From contig JAIOPE010000161.1 of the NCBI GenBank assembly GCA_021414065.1, positions 1 through 40,299 on the forward strand: a stretch of DNA of 40,299 nucleotides. The letters run 5' to 3'. The translations under genes and the position numbers were made by a program. This DNA is from Planctomycetota bacterium. GTDB taxonomy: Bacteria; Planctomycetota; JAJSAM01; JAJVHW01. The first letter of the stretch is position 1. The number at the start of each line of letters is the position of its first letter. The notes beneath the pieces were generated by a model, which worked only from the letters and a program-made list of their open reading frames with translations, did not search any database and had not been told where the DNA came from. Below, one piece after another: positions 140-40,254 of the stretch.

Positions 140-375
140 GCCCGGATCATTCACGAAGCTCCGCGGGAGGACGGCGTGCGTCGCAGGAAGCACAAGCACT
201 TCACGCCGATTCTAGGTACGTTCGCGCCACGACACACTGTCCTGGGCGAGATCCGCGGAGTCGGCCGCAAGGCGGGACCCGCAGCGTCGGCTTTGTCAAG
301 CCACGCAAGGGTCCCGACGCAGCGGACGACCCGCGGGCTCGTCCAGGCGCGGAGCTTCGTGAATGATCCGGGCTA
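140..375 (+). repeat. Copy 1 of a ~235-bp terminal-inverted-repeat-bounded, miniature-transposon-like / structured-RNA-like element (arms gcccggatcattcacgaagctccgcg and its exact complement)
   Basis: The two 26-nt terminal arms are perfectly complementary; the ~100-nt core gagatccgcggagtcggccgcaaggcgggacccgcagcgtcggctttgtcaagccacgcaagggtccc... is shared with the copies at 4632, 37430 and 39951; TA at the right junction (374-375) forms the TAG stop of the 373..810 gene. Confidence 0.85.
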
Positions 376-2213: not shown

Positions 2214-2558
2214 GACGGACTCTCCGGATTGTGGTCCGGGGCCGACACCCGACTCATTCGGGGCCGCTCCCCGGTGCCGAGGGCGCGCCGCCGACGAGTT
2301 CGAACGGCGCCGACTCAGGTTAGACGCAGCCTGCGCCCGGTTGCCATGGGGTCGAACCCTACCTGGCCGCAGCAAGGGAGAGAGCAAGCACGTTCGCGCG
2401 CCGTGCGATCCGCTGGTCCGTCGGAAGTAGGGTTTCGCCCCATTGTTGGAATAGTCCGCCGGACCTAGTGTATGGGGCAGCGGGACCTTCGGCACGCGGG
2501 CATTCGCACTCAGCGGACGACGCACCAGCCGAACGGAGTCCTGCGATAGGAGCGCCAC

Positions 2559-2945
2559 ATGAGACTCTCGATACCAGCCGCACTTGCGGTCTGTCTTTTC
2601 ACGGCCGTCGCGTGCCAGAGCGCCACCGTCCGTGGGCCGCAGGGCCAGTCGGTCACCGCGAACGCACCGGTGTGGATGACGATCCACCGCGGCGAGTCGT
2701 CGCCCCTTGAGATCGGCATCGACCGTACGAAGTTCACGGGGCCGGTCACGGTTTCCATCTTCCAGCTCCCGAAGGGAGTCGAGTCCGACAAGGCGTCGAT
2801 CAAGGCCGAGACCACCAGCGTCACCTTCATCTTGAAGGCCTCGAAGACGGCCGACCTCGTCAGCAACCAGGCGGTCGGCATCACGGTCGAGGATCCGAGC
2901 GGGCGCCAGGCCACCCAGTTCGTCAATCTCACAGTCAACGACTGA
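2559..2945 (+). CDS. Lipoprotein (128 aa), paralog of the next gene
   Basis: Signal peptide with LFTAVAC lipobox; shares LPKGVxSDKASI / LPKGVDVVDSGSKI and overall architecture with the 2985..3392 gene. Confidence 0.75.
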   Translation: MRLSIPAALAVCLFTAVACQSATVRGPQGQSVTANAPVWMTIHRGESSPLEIGIDRTKFTGPVTVSIFQLPKGVESDKASIKAETTSVTFILKASKTADLVSNQAVGITVEDPSGRQATQFVNLTVND

Positions 2946-2984
2946 GCCCGGCTCCGGTCCCAAACAACGAGCAACGAGAACACA

Positions 2985-3392
2985 ATGAACAACAACCTCA
3001 TCGTCGCAGCATTCGCTCTCACGTTCGCAGCGTCCGCCCTTGCCGGATGCTCGAAGAGTTCGACCGTCCAGAGCGCTTCCAACGGCAAGCTGACGCTGGT
3101 CAAGCCGGCCGCCGTGACGATCTATCGCGGCGGGATGACGAAGGCGGCCGTCAAGATCCAGCGCGCGGACCTTCTCGGTGACGTCTCGATCGCGTTCACG
3201 GACCTCCCGAAGGGTGTGGACGTGGTGGACTCCGGCAGCAAGATCGTCGGCGACGAAGGCAGCTACACGCTGCGCGCCGGCGACGACGCGGCTCTCGTCG
3301 AGAACTACTCGGCGACCGTCACCGCCACGACCGGAACCGGAGGCATCGCAGTCTCCGAGCCGATCACCATCAGCGTCAAGGTCAAGCAGTAG
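2985..3392 (+). CDS. Lipoprotein (135 aa), tandem paralog of the 2559..2945 gene
   Basis: Signal peptide MNNNLIVAAFALTFAASALAGC; paralogous core. Confidence 0.75.
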   Translation: MNNNLIVAAFALTFAASALAGCSKSSTVQSASNGKLTLVKPAAVTIYRGGMTKAAVKIQRADLLGDVSIAFTDLPKGVDVVDSGSKIVGDEGSYTLRAGDDAALVENYSATVTATTGTGGIAVSEPITISVKVKQ

Positions 3393-3534
3393 GCGCCCGC
3401 GACCGCAGACAACCATGCGGTCCCGGTCGTCGGTCGTGAGCAGTGGATCGTCGGTGCGCCCCCGTTCGGCGGGTGGACCGACGGTTCGGGTTGAGTGTCG
3501 GGGGTCCGCGCGCGGCTCCGCACCAGGAGTTTCC

Positions 3535-4137
3535 ATGACGATGACGTGCCCCGGATCAGTTGTGAATTTCATCCTCGACGAGGAGCCCCATCTCCACAGC
3601 GTCGCGCGGAGGCTGACTCGATGCGAGTCCGACTCCGACGACCTGGTGCAGGAGACGCTGCTCCGGGCGTATCACGCGCGGGACCGGTTCCAGCCGGGTA
3701 CGTCGGCGCGTGCGTGGACGACGACCATCCTCCGCCGGCTCTTCCTCACCGGCGCGGTGCGTGCGAAGCGCGCCTGGATGCGGACGGACACCGACGCGTG
3801 CGGTCCGCTGGGAGTCTCTGTCGCCCGCGCGCCCGCGCAGGTTGACGCGAACTTCGAGTCGTCGCACGACCGGCCGGCGCCGGACATCCGGACGCTCGGC
3901 GACGGAATGGACGACGTCGTGAAGAACGCGCTGGATCGCGTCCCTGATGTCTATCGCACGACGTTCCTCCTCTCGGTGGTCCGCGGCATGTCGTACGAAG
4001 AGATCGGCCGACAACTCGGTGTGCCGCTCGGCACCGTCATGAGCCGAATCCACCGGGCGCGGGAGCGACTGAAGGGGGACCTCGGTCCGCACCGTCGCGA
4101 ACTCGCCGGGTCGGGCCTGCAGCGTCGCTGCAGTTGA
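3535..4137 (+). CDS. ECF (sigma-70 family) RNA polymerase sigma factor
   Basis: Region 2 (DLVQETLLRAYHARDRFQPGTSARAWTTTILRR) and region 4 (MSYEEIGRQLGVPLGTVMSRIHRARERL) motifs; AGGAG Shine-Dalgarno before the ATG at 3535; the upstream part of ORF 3178..4137 is a low-complexity artefact. Confidence 0.85.
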   Translation: MTMTCPGSVVNFILDEEPHLHSVARRLTRCESDSDDLVQETLLRAYHARDRFQPGTSARAWTTTILRRLFLTGAVRAKRAWMRTDTDACGPLGVSVARAPAQVDANFESSHDRPAPDIRTLGDGMDDVVKNALDRVPDVYRTTFLLSVVRGMSYEEIGRQLGVPLGTVMSRIHRARERLKGDLGPHRRELAGSGLQRRCS

Positions 4138-4184
4138 TCGCCGGGCCGGAAGTCGGCACTCGTCAAACTCGAAGGAGAAACACC

Positions 4185-4337
4185 ATGGGTACGCTGCTCA
4201 TTGTCATCCTCGTCCTGATGCTCCTCGGAGCCATTCCGACGTGGCCGCACAGCAAGAGTTGGGGCTACTACCCGAGCGGGGGCATCGGGCTCGTCCTGGT
4301 CATCCTCGTGGTCCTTGTCCTTGCCGGCCGGATCTGA
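4185..4337 (+). CDS. DUF3309 family small membrane protein
   Basis: MGTLLIVILVLMLLGAIPTWPHSKSWGYYPSGGIGLVLVILVVLVLAGRI matches the DUF3309 pattern; GAAGGAG Shine-Dalgarno. Confidence 0.75.
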   Translation: MGTLLIVILVLMLLGAIPTWPHSKSWGYYPSGGIGLVLVILVVLVLAGRI

Positions 4338-4482
4338 GCGAAGTCGGGGCGCGGATAGGCCCTCTGGCGGATCGGCCATGAAGGGACCTGTGCGTCAGTT
4401 TCACGGCAAGCATGTCGCCGCTCGCCTCGTGGCGGTGAGCAGCGCCTGGAAGTTCCCCGTCGGCCACGGATAGGCGGTTCCC

Positions 4483-4632
4483 ATGCTCGATACCCTGATC
4501 ATCGTCCTCGTCATCATGTGGCTGCTCGGCCTCGTCACGTCCACCACGCTCGGTGGGTTCATCCACGTGCTGCTGGTGATCGCTGTCATCGCCGTGCTGC
4601 TCCGGCTCATTCGCGGCCGAAGGGCGGTCTAG
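4483..4632 (+). CDS. lmo0937-family small membrane protein (49 aa; not in the ORF track)
   Basis: MLDTLIIVLVIMWLLGLVTSTTLGGFIHVLLVIAVIAVLLRLIRGRRAV read from the sequence; the TAG stop at 4630-4632 overlaps the first base of repeat copy 2. Confidence 0.65.
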   Translation: MLDTLIIVLVIMWLLGLVTSTTLGGFIHVLLVIAVIAVLLRLIRGRRAV

Positions 4633-4865
4633 CCCGGACAATGCACGAGGGTTCGCGTGAGAACGGCACGCATCGTAGGAAACAGAAGCACTTCACGCCG
4701 ACTCAAGGCACGTTCGCGTCGCGACACACTGTCCTGGCAGAGATCCGCGGAGTCGGCCGCAAGGCGGGACCCGCAGCGTCGGCTTCGTCAAGCCACGCAA
4801 GGGTCCCAACGCAGCGGACGGCCCGCGGGCTCGGCCAGGCGCGAACCCTCGTGAATTGTCCGGGC
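4632..4865 (+). repeat. Copy 2 of the element bounded by 26-bp terminal inverted repeats
   Basis: Arms gcccggacaatgcacgagggttcgcg and cgcgaaccctcgtgaattgtccgggc are 25/26 complementary to each other, yet differ from copy 1 at 6 arm positions, 5 of them compensated on the partner arm; TA flanks both ends. Confidence 0.85.
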
Positions 4866-5002
4866 TAGATGGGACCGAGCCGAGTCGTCGGAATCGTGCT
4901 CATCGCGGCCGGGGCGTACGTCCTCTTCACGCGCAAGTCCTAGGTAGCCGTCCAAATCACTCACCGCTCGGTTTCCCGCGCGGCCTTCCGGAGGCATCGT
5001 CC

Positions 5003-36806: not shown

Positions 36807-37415
36807 ATGACCGAGCCCCCACGACGCAGCCCCGCGGAAGCGGATGCCATCCTCAGCGCCGAGTTCGCGCGAATCGGCACGCACCGCGACGCTCTCGGTG
36901 AAACCGGCGCCGCCGCCGTGGCCGGGTGGACGCTCATGCACGGCATGGAGTGGGAAGCCGCCGCGATCGCGTGGGAGATGGCTGCGAAGGGCGACCCCGA
37001 CGACCCCGAACCGCTGAACGAGTGGGGAGTCTGTCTGCTTGAACTCGGCCGGTTCGACGAGGCGGCGAATCTGTTCCGCCGGACGATCGACGTCGATGCC
37101 CGCCTCGTTGCCGCGGGGCGCGACGGCGTCGAGTGGATGGAGAACGACCCCGCGTACCGGCTCGGAGTCGCGCTCCACGCGAAGGGCGATCTCCGCAGCG
37201 CGATCGCGTCGTACGAAGACAGCGCGCGGCGCAACCCGACGGGCGTGGACGCGCTCCGCGAGGCGGCGCGGTCCCGGCTGGCCCTGGGGGAGCCGGAGGC
37301 TGCGCTCGAGGTGCTCGGGCGCCTCGAGCGTCGCACCGTCCGACTGACCCTGCGAGCCGAGGTGATGGCGATGCGCGCCGACGCGAACCGGATGCTCCGC
37401 GAGCGCGGGACCTGA
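36807..37415 (+). CDS. TPR repeat protein (202 aa)
   Basis: TPR-like helical repeats (WGVCLLELGRFDEAANLFRRTIDVDA..., LGVALHAKGDLRSAIASYEDSARRNP...); AGGGGGA Shine-Dalgarno. Confidence 0.7.
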   Translation: MTEPPRRSPAEADAILSAEFARIGTHRDALGETGAAAVAGWTLMHGMEWEAAAIAWEMAAKGDPDDPEPLNEWGVCLLELGRFDEAANLFRRTIDVDARLVAAGRDGVEWMENDPAYRLGVALHAKGDLRSAIASYEDSARRNPTGVDALREAARSRLALGEPEAALEVLGRLERRTVRLTLRAEVMAMRADANRMLRERGT

Positions 37416-37429
37416 GGCCCGGATGCCTA

Positions 37430-37675
37430 GCCCGGATCATCCACGAAGCTCCGCGCCTGGGCGAGCCGGCCTCGTCGACGACTGGTCGTCCGCTGCGCTC
37501 AGACCCTTGCGTGGCTTGACAAAGCCGACGCTGCGGGTCCCGCCTTGCGGCCGACTCCGCGGATCTCGTCCAGGACCGCGAGTTTTCGTGCGAATGAGCC
37601 TCGTATCGGCGTGCATCGCAAGCCCTTCCTACGTTGCACGCCGTTCTCCCGCAGAGCTTCGTGAATGATCCGGGC
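37430..37675 (-). repeat. Copy 3 of the terminal-inverted-repeat-bounded element (inverted relative to copies 1 and 2); its right arm supplies the ATG of the downstream gene
   Basis: Arms gcccggatcatccacgaagctccgcg and cgcagagcttcgtgaatgatccgggc; core is the reverse complement of the copy-1 core; TA at both junctions; both arm mismatches become G.U pairs on the minus-strand transcript. Confidence 0.85.
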
Positions 37676-38018
37676 TAACGACGACGGCCCGCGCCCGCCG
37701 GACGCCGTGCCGCCGCCGGATGCGTACCCGGAGCTCGCGCGAGAACTGCAGTCCGCACGGCTGCACACTGCGCTCTGGCGCATCGCGCGCTGGACGGGCG
37801 CGGTCTTGCTCACGCTCGTCGCGTTGTTCTTCGGGTTCGTCCCGGGCATCCCCGGCTTTCCGCTGTTCTTCCTCGCGCTGTTCCTGATCGCGGCCGACTA
37901 TCCGCCGGCGCGGCGACTCGGCGTACGGCTCCTGCGCAAGTTCCCGCGTGTCCGCCGCGCCGTGCCGAAGCGCTGGCGTCGCACGAAGGGGCCGACGCGG
38001 AAGGGTGGTGGCGCATGA
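37665..38018 (+). CDS. PGPGW-domain small transmembrane protein; annotated ATG lies inside the terminal arm of repeat copy 3 (true start may be downstream)
   Basis: FFGFVPGIPGFPLFFLALFLIAADYPPARR resembles the PGPGW transmembrane family; TGA/ATG overlap (ATGA) with the downstream EEP gene. Confidence 0.6.
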   Translation: MIRANDDGPRPPDAVPPPDAYPELARELQSARLHTALWRIARWTGAVLLTLVALFFGFVPGIPGFPLFFLALFLIAADYPPARRLGVRLLRKFPRVRRAVPKRWRRTKGPTRKGGGA

Positions 38019-38743
38019 AGTTCCGCCTCCTCTCGTACAACGTTCACCAGTGCGTGGGCACCGACGGGCATCGCAGCGTCGAGCGAGTGGCCGACGTGAT
38101 CCGCCACTACGCACCCGACGTCGTCTGCCTCCAGGAAGTCGTCTGGCACGAGCATGACCAGCACGCACAACCGCAGCGACTCGCGCAACTCCTCGGCATG
38201 GCGCACGGCGCGGTCGGGCTCTATCGCAACCTCAAGGACGGTGCGTGGGGCAACCTGACCCTCTCGCGTTTCCCGATCGAGGAGTCCGAGACGCTCGACC
38301 TGTCGCTCCTCGTCCGCGGGAAGCGCACGCGCGGAACGCTGTACACGCACCTGCGCGTGGACCGGCGCACGCTCCACCTCTTCAACCTCCATTTCGGCCT
38401 CGCCGGGTTCGAGCGCTCCGCCCAGATCGCGCGCGTGCTCGACCGCGCCGACGAGGTTGCCCCGCACGGCGCACCCGTGGTCCTCGTGGGCGACACGAAC
38501 GACTGGCGTAACCGGCTCTGTTCGGGCGAGCTCGCGAAGGCCGGGTTCACTGCGGCGACCTGCCACGCGAAGGACCCGGGACCAGCGACGTTCCCCAGCA
38601 AGAGCCCCGTCGCCGCACTCGACAAGCTGTTCCTGCGCGGGCACGTTCGCGCGCAGCGTCACTTCGTCTCGCGGCTCGCCGACGCGACGCTGGCGTCGGA
38701 CCACCTGCCCGTGCTGATCGAGATGGAGCTCACGTCGCCGTGA
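38015..38743 (+). CDS. Endonuclease/exonuclease/phosphatase (EEP) family protein (YbhP-like)
   Basis: LLSYNV, VVCLQE, GDTND, SDHLPV catalytic blocks of the EEP fold. Confidence 0.85.
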   Translation: MKFRLLSYNVHQCVGTDGHRSVERVADVIRHYAPDVVCLQEVVWHEHDQHAQPQRLAQLLGMAHGAVGLYRNLKDGAWGNLTLSRFPIEESETLDLSLLVRGKRTRGTLYTHLRVDRRTLHLFNLHFGLAGFERSAQIARVLDRADEVAPHGAPVVLVGDTNDWRNRLCSGELAKAGFTAATCHAKDPGPATFPSKSPVAALDKLFLRGHVRAQRHFVSRLADATLASDHLPVLIEMELTSP

Positions 38744-39951
38744 GCGCGGGCTCGGACCAACTGTCCGTCCCGCGCGCGCCGCGCGGCGTGCGGGACGTCT
38801 TCCGCCGCCGCCTCGGACGTCGCATCCGCAACGCCTTCACCGTCGCCGAGGGGAACTCCATCGAGCCGCTCGGTCCGGGCTCTGCGTTCTTCACGCGCAT
38901 GGCTTCTGCGATCGACGCGGCCTGCGTCGCAGTGGACGTCGAGATGTACCTGTGGCACGACGACGAGGTGGGACACCTCTTCGGCGACGCGCTCGTGAAC
39001 GCCGTGCGACGCGGCGTGCGGGTCCGCCTGCTCGTGGACGCGCAGGGCGCTCGCGACGCGATGGGCCTGGTGAACGACGTGGGGGCGGCGGGCGCCGACG
39101 TGCGCGTGTTCAACCCATTCCGGCTCCGGGTCTGGAGCCGGTACATCCATCGCACGCACAAGAAGATCGTCGTCGTGGATGGATGCGTGGCCTACACGGG
39201 CGGCGCCGGCTTTTCGCTGCACTTCTCCGGCTCGAAGGGCGGCGAGCATCCATGGCACGACCGCATGTACGAGATCCGTGGACCGGTGGTCGCGCATCTC
39301 GAAGCTGCGTTCGAGGCCGACTTCTGGCGCTGGGACCCGAGGTGTGCGCCGTGCGACGGTCCGGATGTGACGATCCCGGTGCCGCAGGCGCCCCTCCAGC
39401 TCGGCGGCTCGCAGATACGCCTCCTGCGCGGCTGGCCCGACGCGCGCGACTTCCGACCCGTCCTGCTCGAGGCGATCCGTGCAGCGAGCGTCCGCATCTG
39501 GATCGGCACGCCGTACTTCCTCCCGCCGCACTCGGTGCGCAAAGCGCTCTACCAGGCGGCGGCGCGCGGCGTGGATGTGAGGGTGATCCACCCGTCTCTC
39601 TCGCACGCGAACTCGATCCTGTATCACGCGGTGCGCGCCCGGTACGGCCGCTACCTCCGCCTGCGCGTGCAACTCCACGAGTACGAATCGGCCTTCTACC
39701 ACGCGAAGACGCTCGTCGTGGACCGCACACTCGCGGTCGTCGGAAGCAGCAACTTCGATTCGTGGAGCTGGAAGCGCAACGCTGAGATCGACCTCGCGAT
39801 CACCGACGCGCCGACCGTCGATCGGATTGCCGCACTCCTCGACGCCGACTGGGCTTCGAGTCGACCGATCACCAGCGAAGACGCTCGCATCCGCAGCTTC
39901 ATCGCAAGCCTGCGCCAGCGTTTCTCCGAGTCGATCGAAGACTGGCTCTAA
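38740..39951 (+). CDS. clsB: Cardiolipin synthase / phospholipase D family protein (ClsB-like); GTG start
   Basis: Two HKD motifs, HRTHKKIVVVDGCVAYTGGAGF and YHAKTLVVDRTLAVVGSSNFD; GTGA overlap with the EEP gene; EEP-cls order mirrors E. coli ybhP-clsB. Confidence 0.85.
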   Translation: MSAGSDQLSVPRAPRGVRDVFRRRLGRRIRNAFTVAEGNSIEPLGPGSAFFTRMASAIDAACVAVDVEMYLWHDDEVGHLFGDALVNAVRRGVRVRLLVDAQGARDAMGLVNDVGAAGADVRVFNPFRLRVWSRYIHRTHKKIVVVDGCVAYTGGAGFSLHFSGSKGGEHPWHDRMYEIRGPVVAHLEAAFEADFWRWDPRCAPCDGPDVTIPVPQAPLQLGGSQIRLLRGWPDARDFRPVLLEAIRAASVRIWIGTPYFLPPHSVRKALYQAAARGVDVRVIHPSLSHANSILYHAVRARYGRYLRLRVQLHEYESAFYHAKTLVVDRTLAVVGSSNFDSWSWKRNAEIDLAITDAPTVDRIAALLDADWASSRPITSEDARIRSFIASLRQRFSESIEDWL

Positions 39952-40184
39952 CCCGAATCATGCACGAAGCTCCGCGCCTGGACGAGCCGGCGGGTCGCCC
40001 GCTGCGTTGGGACCCTTGCGTGGCTTGACAAAGCCGACGCTGCGGGTCCCGCCTTGCGGCCGACTCCGCGGATCTCGTCCAGGACGGTGTGTCGCCGTGC
40101 GAACGAGCGCCGGATCGGCGTGCACCGCAAGCCCTTCCTACGTTGCACGCCGTTCTCCCGCGGAGCTTCGTGAATGATCCGGGT
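39951..40184 (-). repeat. Copy 4 of the terminal-inverted-repeat-bounded element; its first base completes the TAA stop of clsB
   Basis: Arms acccgaatcatgcacgaagctccgcg and cgcggagcttcgtgaatgatccgggt; the terminal a...t pair replaces the g...c seen in the other copies; part of the window-bounding inverted repeat with copy 1. Confidence 0.85.
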
Positions 40185-40254
40185 GAGGCCTCTCCACGTC
40201 GCTCAGGTGCCTGTCGGAGGGTCAAGCTAACATAGACCTAACACGGAGGTCTAG

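Follow-up and report, generated by a model that had tools for sequence, protein, structure and literature searches.

How can the two arms of a dispersed repeat change in sequence and still remain complementary to each other? The question is raised by the window analyzed here, a stretch of 40,299 nucleotides that is the entire contig of a Planctomycetota MAG in NCBI (encoding MCE9638153.1) and has a GC content of 70%. It holds four copies of a repeat unit, first drawn at 234-246 nt (140-373 and 4632-4865 on the plus strand; 37430-37675 and 39951-40184 with the core inverted), and the original prediction read the pairing preserved between their drifting arms as the signature of selection on an intrastrand stem, either an RNA hairpin or a DNA cruciform. 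A script-based comparison reproduced the pattern on which that reading was built. The arms of copy 1 (140-373) are complementary at 26/26 positions. The left arm of copy 2 differs from that of copy 1 by 6 changes (positions 8, 9, 12, 18, 20, and 22), five of which are mirrored in the right arm (8, 9, 18, 20, and 22), leaving copy 2 (4632-4865) paired at 25/26 positions with an uncompensated G.A at position 12. Copy 3 has two mismatches, which read as C.A on its plus strand but as G.U on the minus, as had been described. If the arms were independent, the chance of five mirrored complementary changes in the right arm would be ~3.8e-7; the mirroring is real and goes beyond chance.

Anatomy of the repeat

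The repeat unit, carried by a Planctomycetota genome, is a non-autonomous MITE whose ends are of the IS1380 type. A repeat search and nhmmer located four copies at unrelated loci in the 40-kb window. The element proper runs CCCGG...CCGGG and is 232 nt long with 25-nt arms (CCCGGATCATTCACGA...). At 232-244 nt, the window copies are short units (<600 bp) without a transposase gene, as bacterial MITEs are, and the open reading frames inside them are not conserved. Their terminal inverted repeats are complementary at 23-25 of the 25 arm positions across the four copies (script), and the arms enclose a left region that evolves fast and a hairpin of 107 nt that is conserved.

Copy 2, delimited by the repeat search and nhmmer, occupies positions 4633-4864 on the plus strand. 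It comprises a left arm (4633-4657), which is an IS1380-type TIR of the variant CCCGGACAATGCACGAGGGTTCGCG, a variable left region (4658-4732) with 15-36% pairwise differences among the window copies, the conserved internal hairpin (4733-4839), and a right arm (4840-4864; reverse complement CCCGGACAATTCACGAGGGTTCGCG). A target-site duplication of CTAG flanks it at 4629-4632, assigned from the sequence and the duplication statistics given below, and at 4865-4868, assigned from the sequence. Copy 1 (141-372, plus strand) has arms at 141-165 and 348-372, a left region at 166-240, and a hairpin at 241-347; its flanking 4-mers are CTCG (137-140) and CTAG (373-376). The core of copy 3 (37431-37674, minus strand) is inverted, with arms at 37650-37674 and 37431-37455, a left region at 37575-37649, and a hairpin at 37456-37574 that carries a 12-nt insertion; it lies between CTAG (37427-37430) and CTAA (37675-37678). 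Copy 4 (39952-40183, minus strand), likewise core inverted and mosaic in composition, has arms at 40159-40183 and 39952-39976, a hairpin at 39977-40083, and a left region at 40084-40158, and its flanking 4-mers, CTAA (39948-39951) and TGAG (40184-40187), are not a duplication.

Two stretches at the contig ends, 25-165 and 40159-40299, are inverted repeats of each other, with 100% identity across the flank and the first arm of both copy 1 and copy 4; they differ only at the base beside CCCGG (G versus A). This repeat could come from rearrangement or duplication mediated by the MITE, from variation between strains, or from faulty assembly. It contains an operator-like palindrome, TAGACCT-N7-AGGTCTA (71-91 and 40233-40253), just upstream of the duplicated start of an outward-facing gene (ATGTTGGCTGACCAG...). 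Logan contigs of the same organism are short and break inside copies of the element. The gene content had suggested a myxobacterial source, a reading rejected because the contig belongs to a Planctomycetota MAG.

The ends are of the IS1380 type

In three alphaproteobacterial MAG loci (L003, L017, and L047), CTAG followed by CCCGGATAATGCACGAGGGTTGGCG is found ~90 nt upstream of IS1380 transposase open reading frames (PF13701, NF033539); the end form shared by these loci is CTAG followed by CCCGGAT(A/T)ATGCACGAGGGT(T/C)GGCG. A tblastn search of plasmids led to the named IS1380-family elements ISAzs3 and ISAcr4, the former of which, on pAB510f, has the left end CCGGGAAAATTCATGAGGGTTGGCG and the right end CCGCCTTTATTCACCAGGGTGGCGAG (reverse complement) with CTAG on both sides. 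Because the ends of the element match both those that flank IS1380 transposases and those of ISAzs3, its arms are IS1380-type terminal inverted repeats. In the ISfinder description, IS1380-family ends start with CC and the target duplication is 4-5 bp; the element has CCCGG ends, a 4-bp duplication, and a match to the ISAzs3 IRL and to the ends at the three alphaproteobacterial loci. The outer ~17 nt (CCCGGATNATNCACGAG) recur in loci from Planctomycetota, Alphaproteobacteria, and Acidobacteriota and are common to three unrelated MITE families. One of the alphaproteobacterial elements (L017, 1271-4315) is itself interrupted by an IS1182-family insertion sequence (open reading frame 2450-3760).

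No IS1380 transposase gene was found by tblastn in the element, the window, or the Planctomycetota loci examined, and since the element contains no IS1380 transposase open reading frame (PF13701 / NF033539), it is a derivative and not an IS. The MITE would derive from an IS1380-family IS, and an IS1380-family transposase presumably moves it in trans. ISAzs3 of Azospirillum sp. B510 (IRL as given above, compared with CCCGGATCATTCACGAGGGTTCGCG in the element) shares with it the CC(C) ends and the 4-bp CTAG duplication. In contrast, the IS1380 insertion sequences ISAzs3 and ISAcr4 are ~1.7 kb long with a transposase gene and have left and right ends that differ, whereas the element is 232 nt long without such a gene, has identical or nearly identical ends, and encloses structured sequence unrelated to IS1380 insertion sequences.

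Elements of the piggyBac type have CCC...GGG ends and a 4-bp palindromic, TA-centered target, TTAA. The CCCGG...CCGGG ends and the CTAG or TTAA-like targets of the element parallel this arrangement, a likeness that would reflect kinship only at the level of the transposase superfamily; piggyBac and its MITEs reside in a different, eukaryotic host domain, and their end sequences differ from those of the element. IS1380 transposases serve as the prokaryotic outgroup of piggyBac (PMC10813416).

Target duplication and insertion behind genes

When the 4 bases outside CCCGG...CCGGG were compared between the left and right sides, the first positions were equal in 17/25 copies (P=0.0085 versus shuffles) and the fourth positions in 16/25 (P=0.034 versus shuffles). 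Exact 4-bp duplications were seen as TTCA/TTCA, GTAA/GTAA, and CAAG/CAAG, which are non-palindromic, and as CTAG/CTAG; the duplication is degraded in older copies. The match statistics and the non-palindromic examples together indicate a 4-bp duplication, and thus an element proper of CCCGG...CCGGG with arms of 25 nt. The outermost pair of copy 4 is A...T where that of copy 1 is G...C, as originally reported, but it had been counted as part of the arm and belongs instead to the target duplication. One of its bases closes the TAA stop codon with which the preceding gene ends, and the difference between G..C and A..T follows from palindromic targets such as CTAG or TTAA. Besides this outermost change, the arms of copy 4 contain one G.U and one mismatch. 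An IS630/Tc1-type TA duplication within CTAG was considered and rejected on the evidence of the TTCA, GTAA, and CAAG duplications, the matches at the outer positions, and the IS1380 ends.

The targets would be TA-centered 4-bp sites (CTAG, CTAA, TTAG, and similar). Such sites in a 70-74% GC genome fall mostly at stop codons, so copies accumulate directly behind genes. To the left of copy 2, TAG (4630-4632) is the stop codon of a 49-amino-acid DUF5670 gene (4483-4632; gene call and Pfam, Logan contig L001), and to its right, CTAG directly abuts ATG 4869 of a 24-codon open reading frame (4869-4943) with no Pfam match. TAG at 373-375, beside copy 1, is the minus-strand stop codon of the gene 373-810, and TAA at 39949-39951, beside copy 4, ends the PLD-family gene 38740-39951. 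Copy 3 lies 11 nt past the TGA stop codon of the gene 36807-37415. Many copies in a second MAG, Bin_16R, likewise adjoin the ends of open reading frames, and the orientation of the element relative to neighboring genes is random.

The surroundings of copy 2 (window 4137-4943; L001 3839-4286) are a run of tiny membrane-protein genes (DUF3309, a 31-amino-acid open reading frame, DUF5670, and the 24-codon open reading frame) with an ECF-type sigma factor gene upstream. Removal of copy 2 would bring the stop codon of DUF5670 directly up against the ATG that follows (CTAGATG).

Relatives of the window genome have no element at the corresponding junctions, showing presence and absence at orthologous sites, although these relatives (L082 and L083) are distant, at 64-75% amino acid identity. 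In both, the 3' end of the PLD gene lacks the element, the gene ending in ...GACTGGCTCTGA, and in L083 the stop codon of a TPR gene and the start of the next gene are 1 nt apart where the window holds copy 3. The arm of copy 3 (GTGAATGATCCGGG) contains an ATG at 37665 that shares the reading frame of the membrane-protein gene downstream (37665-38018), and the N-terminal 24 residues of that gene's product differ between L083 and the window. Given the 1-nt spacing in L083 and the differing N terminus, copy 3 may have split a coupled gene pair and supplied a new start codon.

Related elements in other genomes

A degenerate pattern spanning all eight arms of the window copies (CCCGRANNATNCACGARGNTNNGCG) returned 74 loci, mostly from two Planctomycetota MAGs. 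The first, JAJVHW01 (Bin_16R), contains at least 21 full-length homologs at unrelated loci, with 72-79% identity (nhmmer, sampled loci); among the data examined, the family of the window element was seen in these two genomes only, the window's own and Bin_16R. In some Bin_16R copies (L063, L053, L011, and L021), the left region is lengthened by one or two further tandem repeats of the 13-nt unit GTACGTCGATNCT (alignment A2, columns 60-98), giving variants of 246 and 259 nt. At another JAJVHW01 locus (L016, 2726-4153), two inverted copies of the element surround a single gene for a metallo-beta-lactamase-fold hydrolase (2990-3901, minus strand), an arrangement that resembles a composite transposon.

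The second MAG, JBCCGH01 (P01_B01_bin.39), carries a sister MITE family of ~215 nt with the same outer ends and an unrelated interior. This family is young and almost always flanked by CTAG, and many of its copies are at contig ends. It was found at L008, L009, L018, L020, L026 to L028, L031, L036, L040, L042, L045, L048, L049, L051, L054, L061, L062, L064, L069, and L072; its arms are of two subtypes, asymmetric and symmetric (L009 and L036), and L049 has an internal deletion. A third family with the same outer ends was found in the Planctomycetota MAG OFTM281 (L022, 6534-6916), where two copies are apparently arranged head to tail with one CTAG common to both.

Other searches returned no relatives. 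An exact 23-mer of the invariant core had no match in genome, metagenome, or viral contig collections, and the degenerate core pattern gave 4 chance matches only in metagenome contigs. There was no match for the degenerate arm pattern in viral contigs, for the element in plasmids (blastn), or for a concatenated six-frame translation used to catch spurious open reading frames called over other copies.

Arm variants are shared between subfamilies and do not covary within a genome

The arms exist in two variants, GAAGCTCC and GAGGGTTC. The inner arm of copy 2, GAGGGTTCGCG, is that of both arms of all 21 Bin_16R copies, for which the consensus of both arms is CCCGGATCATTCACGAGGGTTCGCG. At positions 18, 20, and 22, copy 2 has the widespread state, which is also present in IS1380 left ends, whereas copies 1, 3, and 4 have the derived state GAAGCTCC on both arms. 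The change private to copy 2 is limited to positions 8-9. The inner arm of copy 1, GAAGCTCCGCG, is that of a solo end in L029, and the arm positions that vary are those variable among IS1380 ends generally. Copy 2 therefore represents a separate arm subfamily, with both variants occurring in other genomes, which is largely the outcome that had been named in advance as refuting stem selection on the arms. The L029 end (4378-4406) is a solo IS1380-type end of the copy-1 variant, TTAG followed by CCCGGATTATTCACGAAGCTCCGCG, directly behind a stop codon on a proteobacterial MAG contig, and no second arm to pair with it turned up within 1.2 kb.

Within Bin_16R, the preferential compensation of arm changes that had been anticipated did not appear: 21 changes were one-sided and 0 were compensated. 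Private changes numbered 0.2-0.4 per arm column, compared with 0.29 per column of the left region, a difference that is not significant, and an uncompensated G.G arm mismatch is common to 7 copies. The arms of the sister family in JBCCGH01 are non-complementary at 4-5/25 positions (4 of them clustered in the inner arm, with position 13 added in some copies), and this family with mismatched arms is abundant as well as young. Its standard right arm reads ...GCGTGAAGACTCG..., whereas L009 and L036 read ...GCGCCAACCCTCG..., a 4-base block that is the exact complement of the left arm and makes the arms perfectly complementary in copies whose interior is otherwise almost identical. This clustered switch is best read as a single templated event of arm-to-arm copying or replacement; the direction of the change is not polarized.

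The copies also appear to have exchanged parts. The tree of the window arms, ((c1,c3,c4),c2), conflicts with that of the left regions, ((c1,c2),(c3,c4)). The flank and arm of copy 4 are 100% identical to those of copy 1 and are joined to an interior of the copy-3 type, and the Bin_16R arm variant G20C is found on differing left-region types. These three observations identify the copies as mosaics, and the five mirrored changes are therefore not countable as five independent compensations in place.

The internal hairpin carries a signature of structural selection

The predicted fold of copy 1 has a minimum free energy of -154 kcal/mol (z = -12), and RNAalifold on 25 copies gave 69 pairs, with 97.8% of cells paired. 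Over the whole element, 15 pairs were changed on both sides, compared with 0-5 when partners were slid, and 0/500 shuffles reached 15. Between the consensus sequences of the two genomes, 28 of the 37 hairpin pairs are unchanged, 8 have changed at both bases and still pair, 1 has changed at one base without losing its pairing, and 0 are broken, and 11 of the 32 unpaired columns are changed, with bulges and loops retained. A loop motif, CAAGG-N7-CGCAG, is conserved and occurs twice in the hairpin (4760-4776 and 4798-4814 in copy 2), the N7 segment of one occurrence pairing with that of the other. Differences between Bin_16R copies amount to 0.7% in the hairpin, 13.5% in the left region, and 4-5% in the arms. 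Private changes in the Bin_16R hairpin (0.075 per column) are 4-5 times fewer than in the rest of the element (Fisher P = 2e-5). A signature of structural selection is thus clear and real, and it is located in the internal hairpin.

It is possible, though we hold this only tentatively, that the 107-nt module is itself functional, either as an RNA element acting within host transcripts at their 3' ends, or as a folded DNA or RNA cofactor for IS1380/piggyBac-type transposition. Rfam gave no match at the gathering threshold in the window and none at E<=5 for copy 1 or one Bin_16R copy, a scan for sigma-70 promoters and intrinsic terminators found no site in the elements, and a hairpin-only HMM found no stand-alone hairpin in ~600 kb of loci examined. 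Retron msr-msd and TnpB/IscB guide RNAs, suggested by a structured core between inverted repeats, were considered and rejected, since the neighborhood holds no gene for a reverse transcriptase or a nuclease and the element has TIRs and target duplications.

Explanations for the co-variation of the arms

The account we favor, with somewhat better than even confidence, is that the repeat is an IS1380-derived MITE whose arm co-variation reflects concerted TIR evolution in transposing lineages and not stem selection acting on each resident copy. What sets copy 2 apart from copies 1, 3, and 4 and looks "compensated" would then be the difference between two arm variants, each of them symmetric. The arms of one element would be kept alike only in lineages that are still transposing, and those of a resident copy would decay without compensation. 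The likeness could be produced by short templated copying, from arm to arm or from the end of another element (quasipalindrome-type template switching or gene conversion), or by selection for two equally good transposase sites, with the two causes acting alone or together. Co-variation that lies between subfamilies, variants that recur elsewhere, the lack of compensation within a genome, and the block switch in the sister family favor concerted evolution over stem selection. Running counter to it, all five subfamily-level arm differences are compensated, no IS1380 transposase gene was found in the window or the Planctomycetota loci examined, and the excess of G-T over A-C among one-sided arm changes (8 to 1) is not predicted by neutral decay of duplex DNA.

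In quasipalindromes, a template switch during replication converts imperfect inverted repeats towards perfect complementarity (PMC7202029). The "compensating" changes that result are clustered, as is the 4-base block in L009 and L036. Such switching is known for short, small-loop hairpins in E. coli and yeast, whereas here it would have to connect arms ~180 nt apart. Bulges and loops persist in the internal hairpin, an outcome not expected if a palindrome were simply being perfected.

Selection on the stem, the next most credible explanation for the arms, is considerably less probable. It takes the arms as the closing helix of a functional single-stranded fold (a read-through RNA hairpin, or a DNA hairpin or cruciform) and the mirrored changes as true compensatory substitutions, consistent with the compensation of 5/6 arm differences between copies 2 and 1, the low free energy and z score of copy 1, the 15 covarying pairs, and the position of copies at the 3' ends of genes, where transcription is expected. 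The 8 compensated and 0 broken pairs of the hairpin, with its conserved bulges and loops, add to this, and since the closing helix belongs to a fold with covarying internal helices, selection on the whole-element hairpin could also cover the arms. Stem selection on the arms fits poorly with the 0/21 compensated changes in Bin_16R, where conservation of the arms does not exceed that of the left region, with the G.G mismatch of a 7-copy subfamily, and with the spread of an abundant, young sister family mismatched at 4-5/25 arm positions. The varying positions, being those that vary among IS1380 ends, and the recurrence of both variants elsewhere also argue against it, as do the random orientation to flanking genes and the equal folding of the two strands (-107 versus -105 kcal/mol). 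The asymmetry between G.U and C.A, which had been suggested as a guide to the transcribed strand, is present in the arms, where one-sided changes on the "sense" strand give 8 G-T to 1 A-C, in favor of stem selection, but the contrast between paired columns (G-U versus A-C, 10 to 3) and unpaired columns (5 to 7) is not significant (one-sided P = 0.08). With two genomes, stem selection on the arms is not fully separable from symmetric selection of transposase sites or arm-to-arm conversion. What is supported of the original prediction is that the arms co-vary beyond chance, that the whole-element fold covaries, and that one-sided arm changes favor G-T; its attribution of selection to the arms specifically is not supported.

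Slightly less credible still is an explanation by transposase co-evolution alone, in which each variant fits a different resident IS1380 transposase and the arms are selected independently, with pairing as a by-product and no copying. IS1380-type ends of both variants do occur in other genomes, conservation of the outer 17 nt extends across phyla, and families with mismatched arms still spread. Identical ends are not required, however, as the IRL and IRR of ISAzs3 are quite different; the L009/L036 block is an exact copy of the other arm and looks templated; and no transposase from the element-carrying genomes was found among the loci examined. A non-mobile family of structured RNA genes bracketed by inverted repeats by chance, which the strong fold and the conserved, covarying hairpin might suggest, is very improbable and largely refuted by the absence of any Rfam match even at E<=5, by the IS1380 identity of the terminal repeats, the 4-bp target duplications, and the orthologous sites that lack the element, and by the random orientation and the restriction of the hairpin, in the DNA examined, to copies with arms.

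Comparison with other bacterial MITEs

Like the element, CREE, RUP, ERIC, and QMITE are short, dispersed, bounded by TIRs, and located at gene borders, and their transcripts form stable stem-loops. The target duplication of CREE is TA. The element has IS1380-like ends and a 4-bp duplication in place of the Correia 26-bp repeat and TA duplication, and the end sequences and parent IS families of CREE and other MITEs are unrelated to its own. CREE in Neisseria can be bound by RNase III and cleaved or protected, and it can also bind IHF and create promoters (PMC2649163). The general features of MITEs have been reviewed (PMC10969869, PMC2229807); a 2024 MITE review makes no mention of IS1380 or Planctomycetes.

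Implications for the family and its hosts

The element represents an apparently undescribed IS1380-derived MITE family in Planctomycetota. Its arms illustrate that mirrored changes in transposon ends can mimic RNA-style covariation and yet fit concerted TIR evolution between subfamilies better. Members of the family insert at stop codons, with possible remodeling of gene junctions. The hairpin is a transposon passenger whose conservation exceeds that of the transposon's ends 4-5 fold and whose pairs include 8 compensated between genomes; it is a candidate for a new structured element, and if the module is functional, selection would be preserving the hairpin in all copies even as the arms and the remaining sequence decay.
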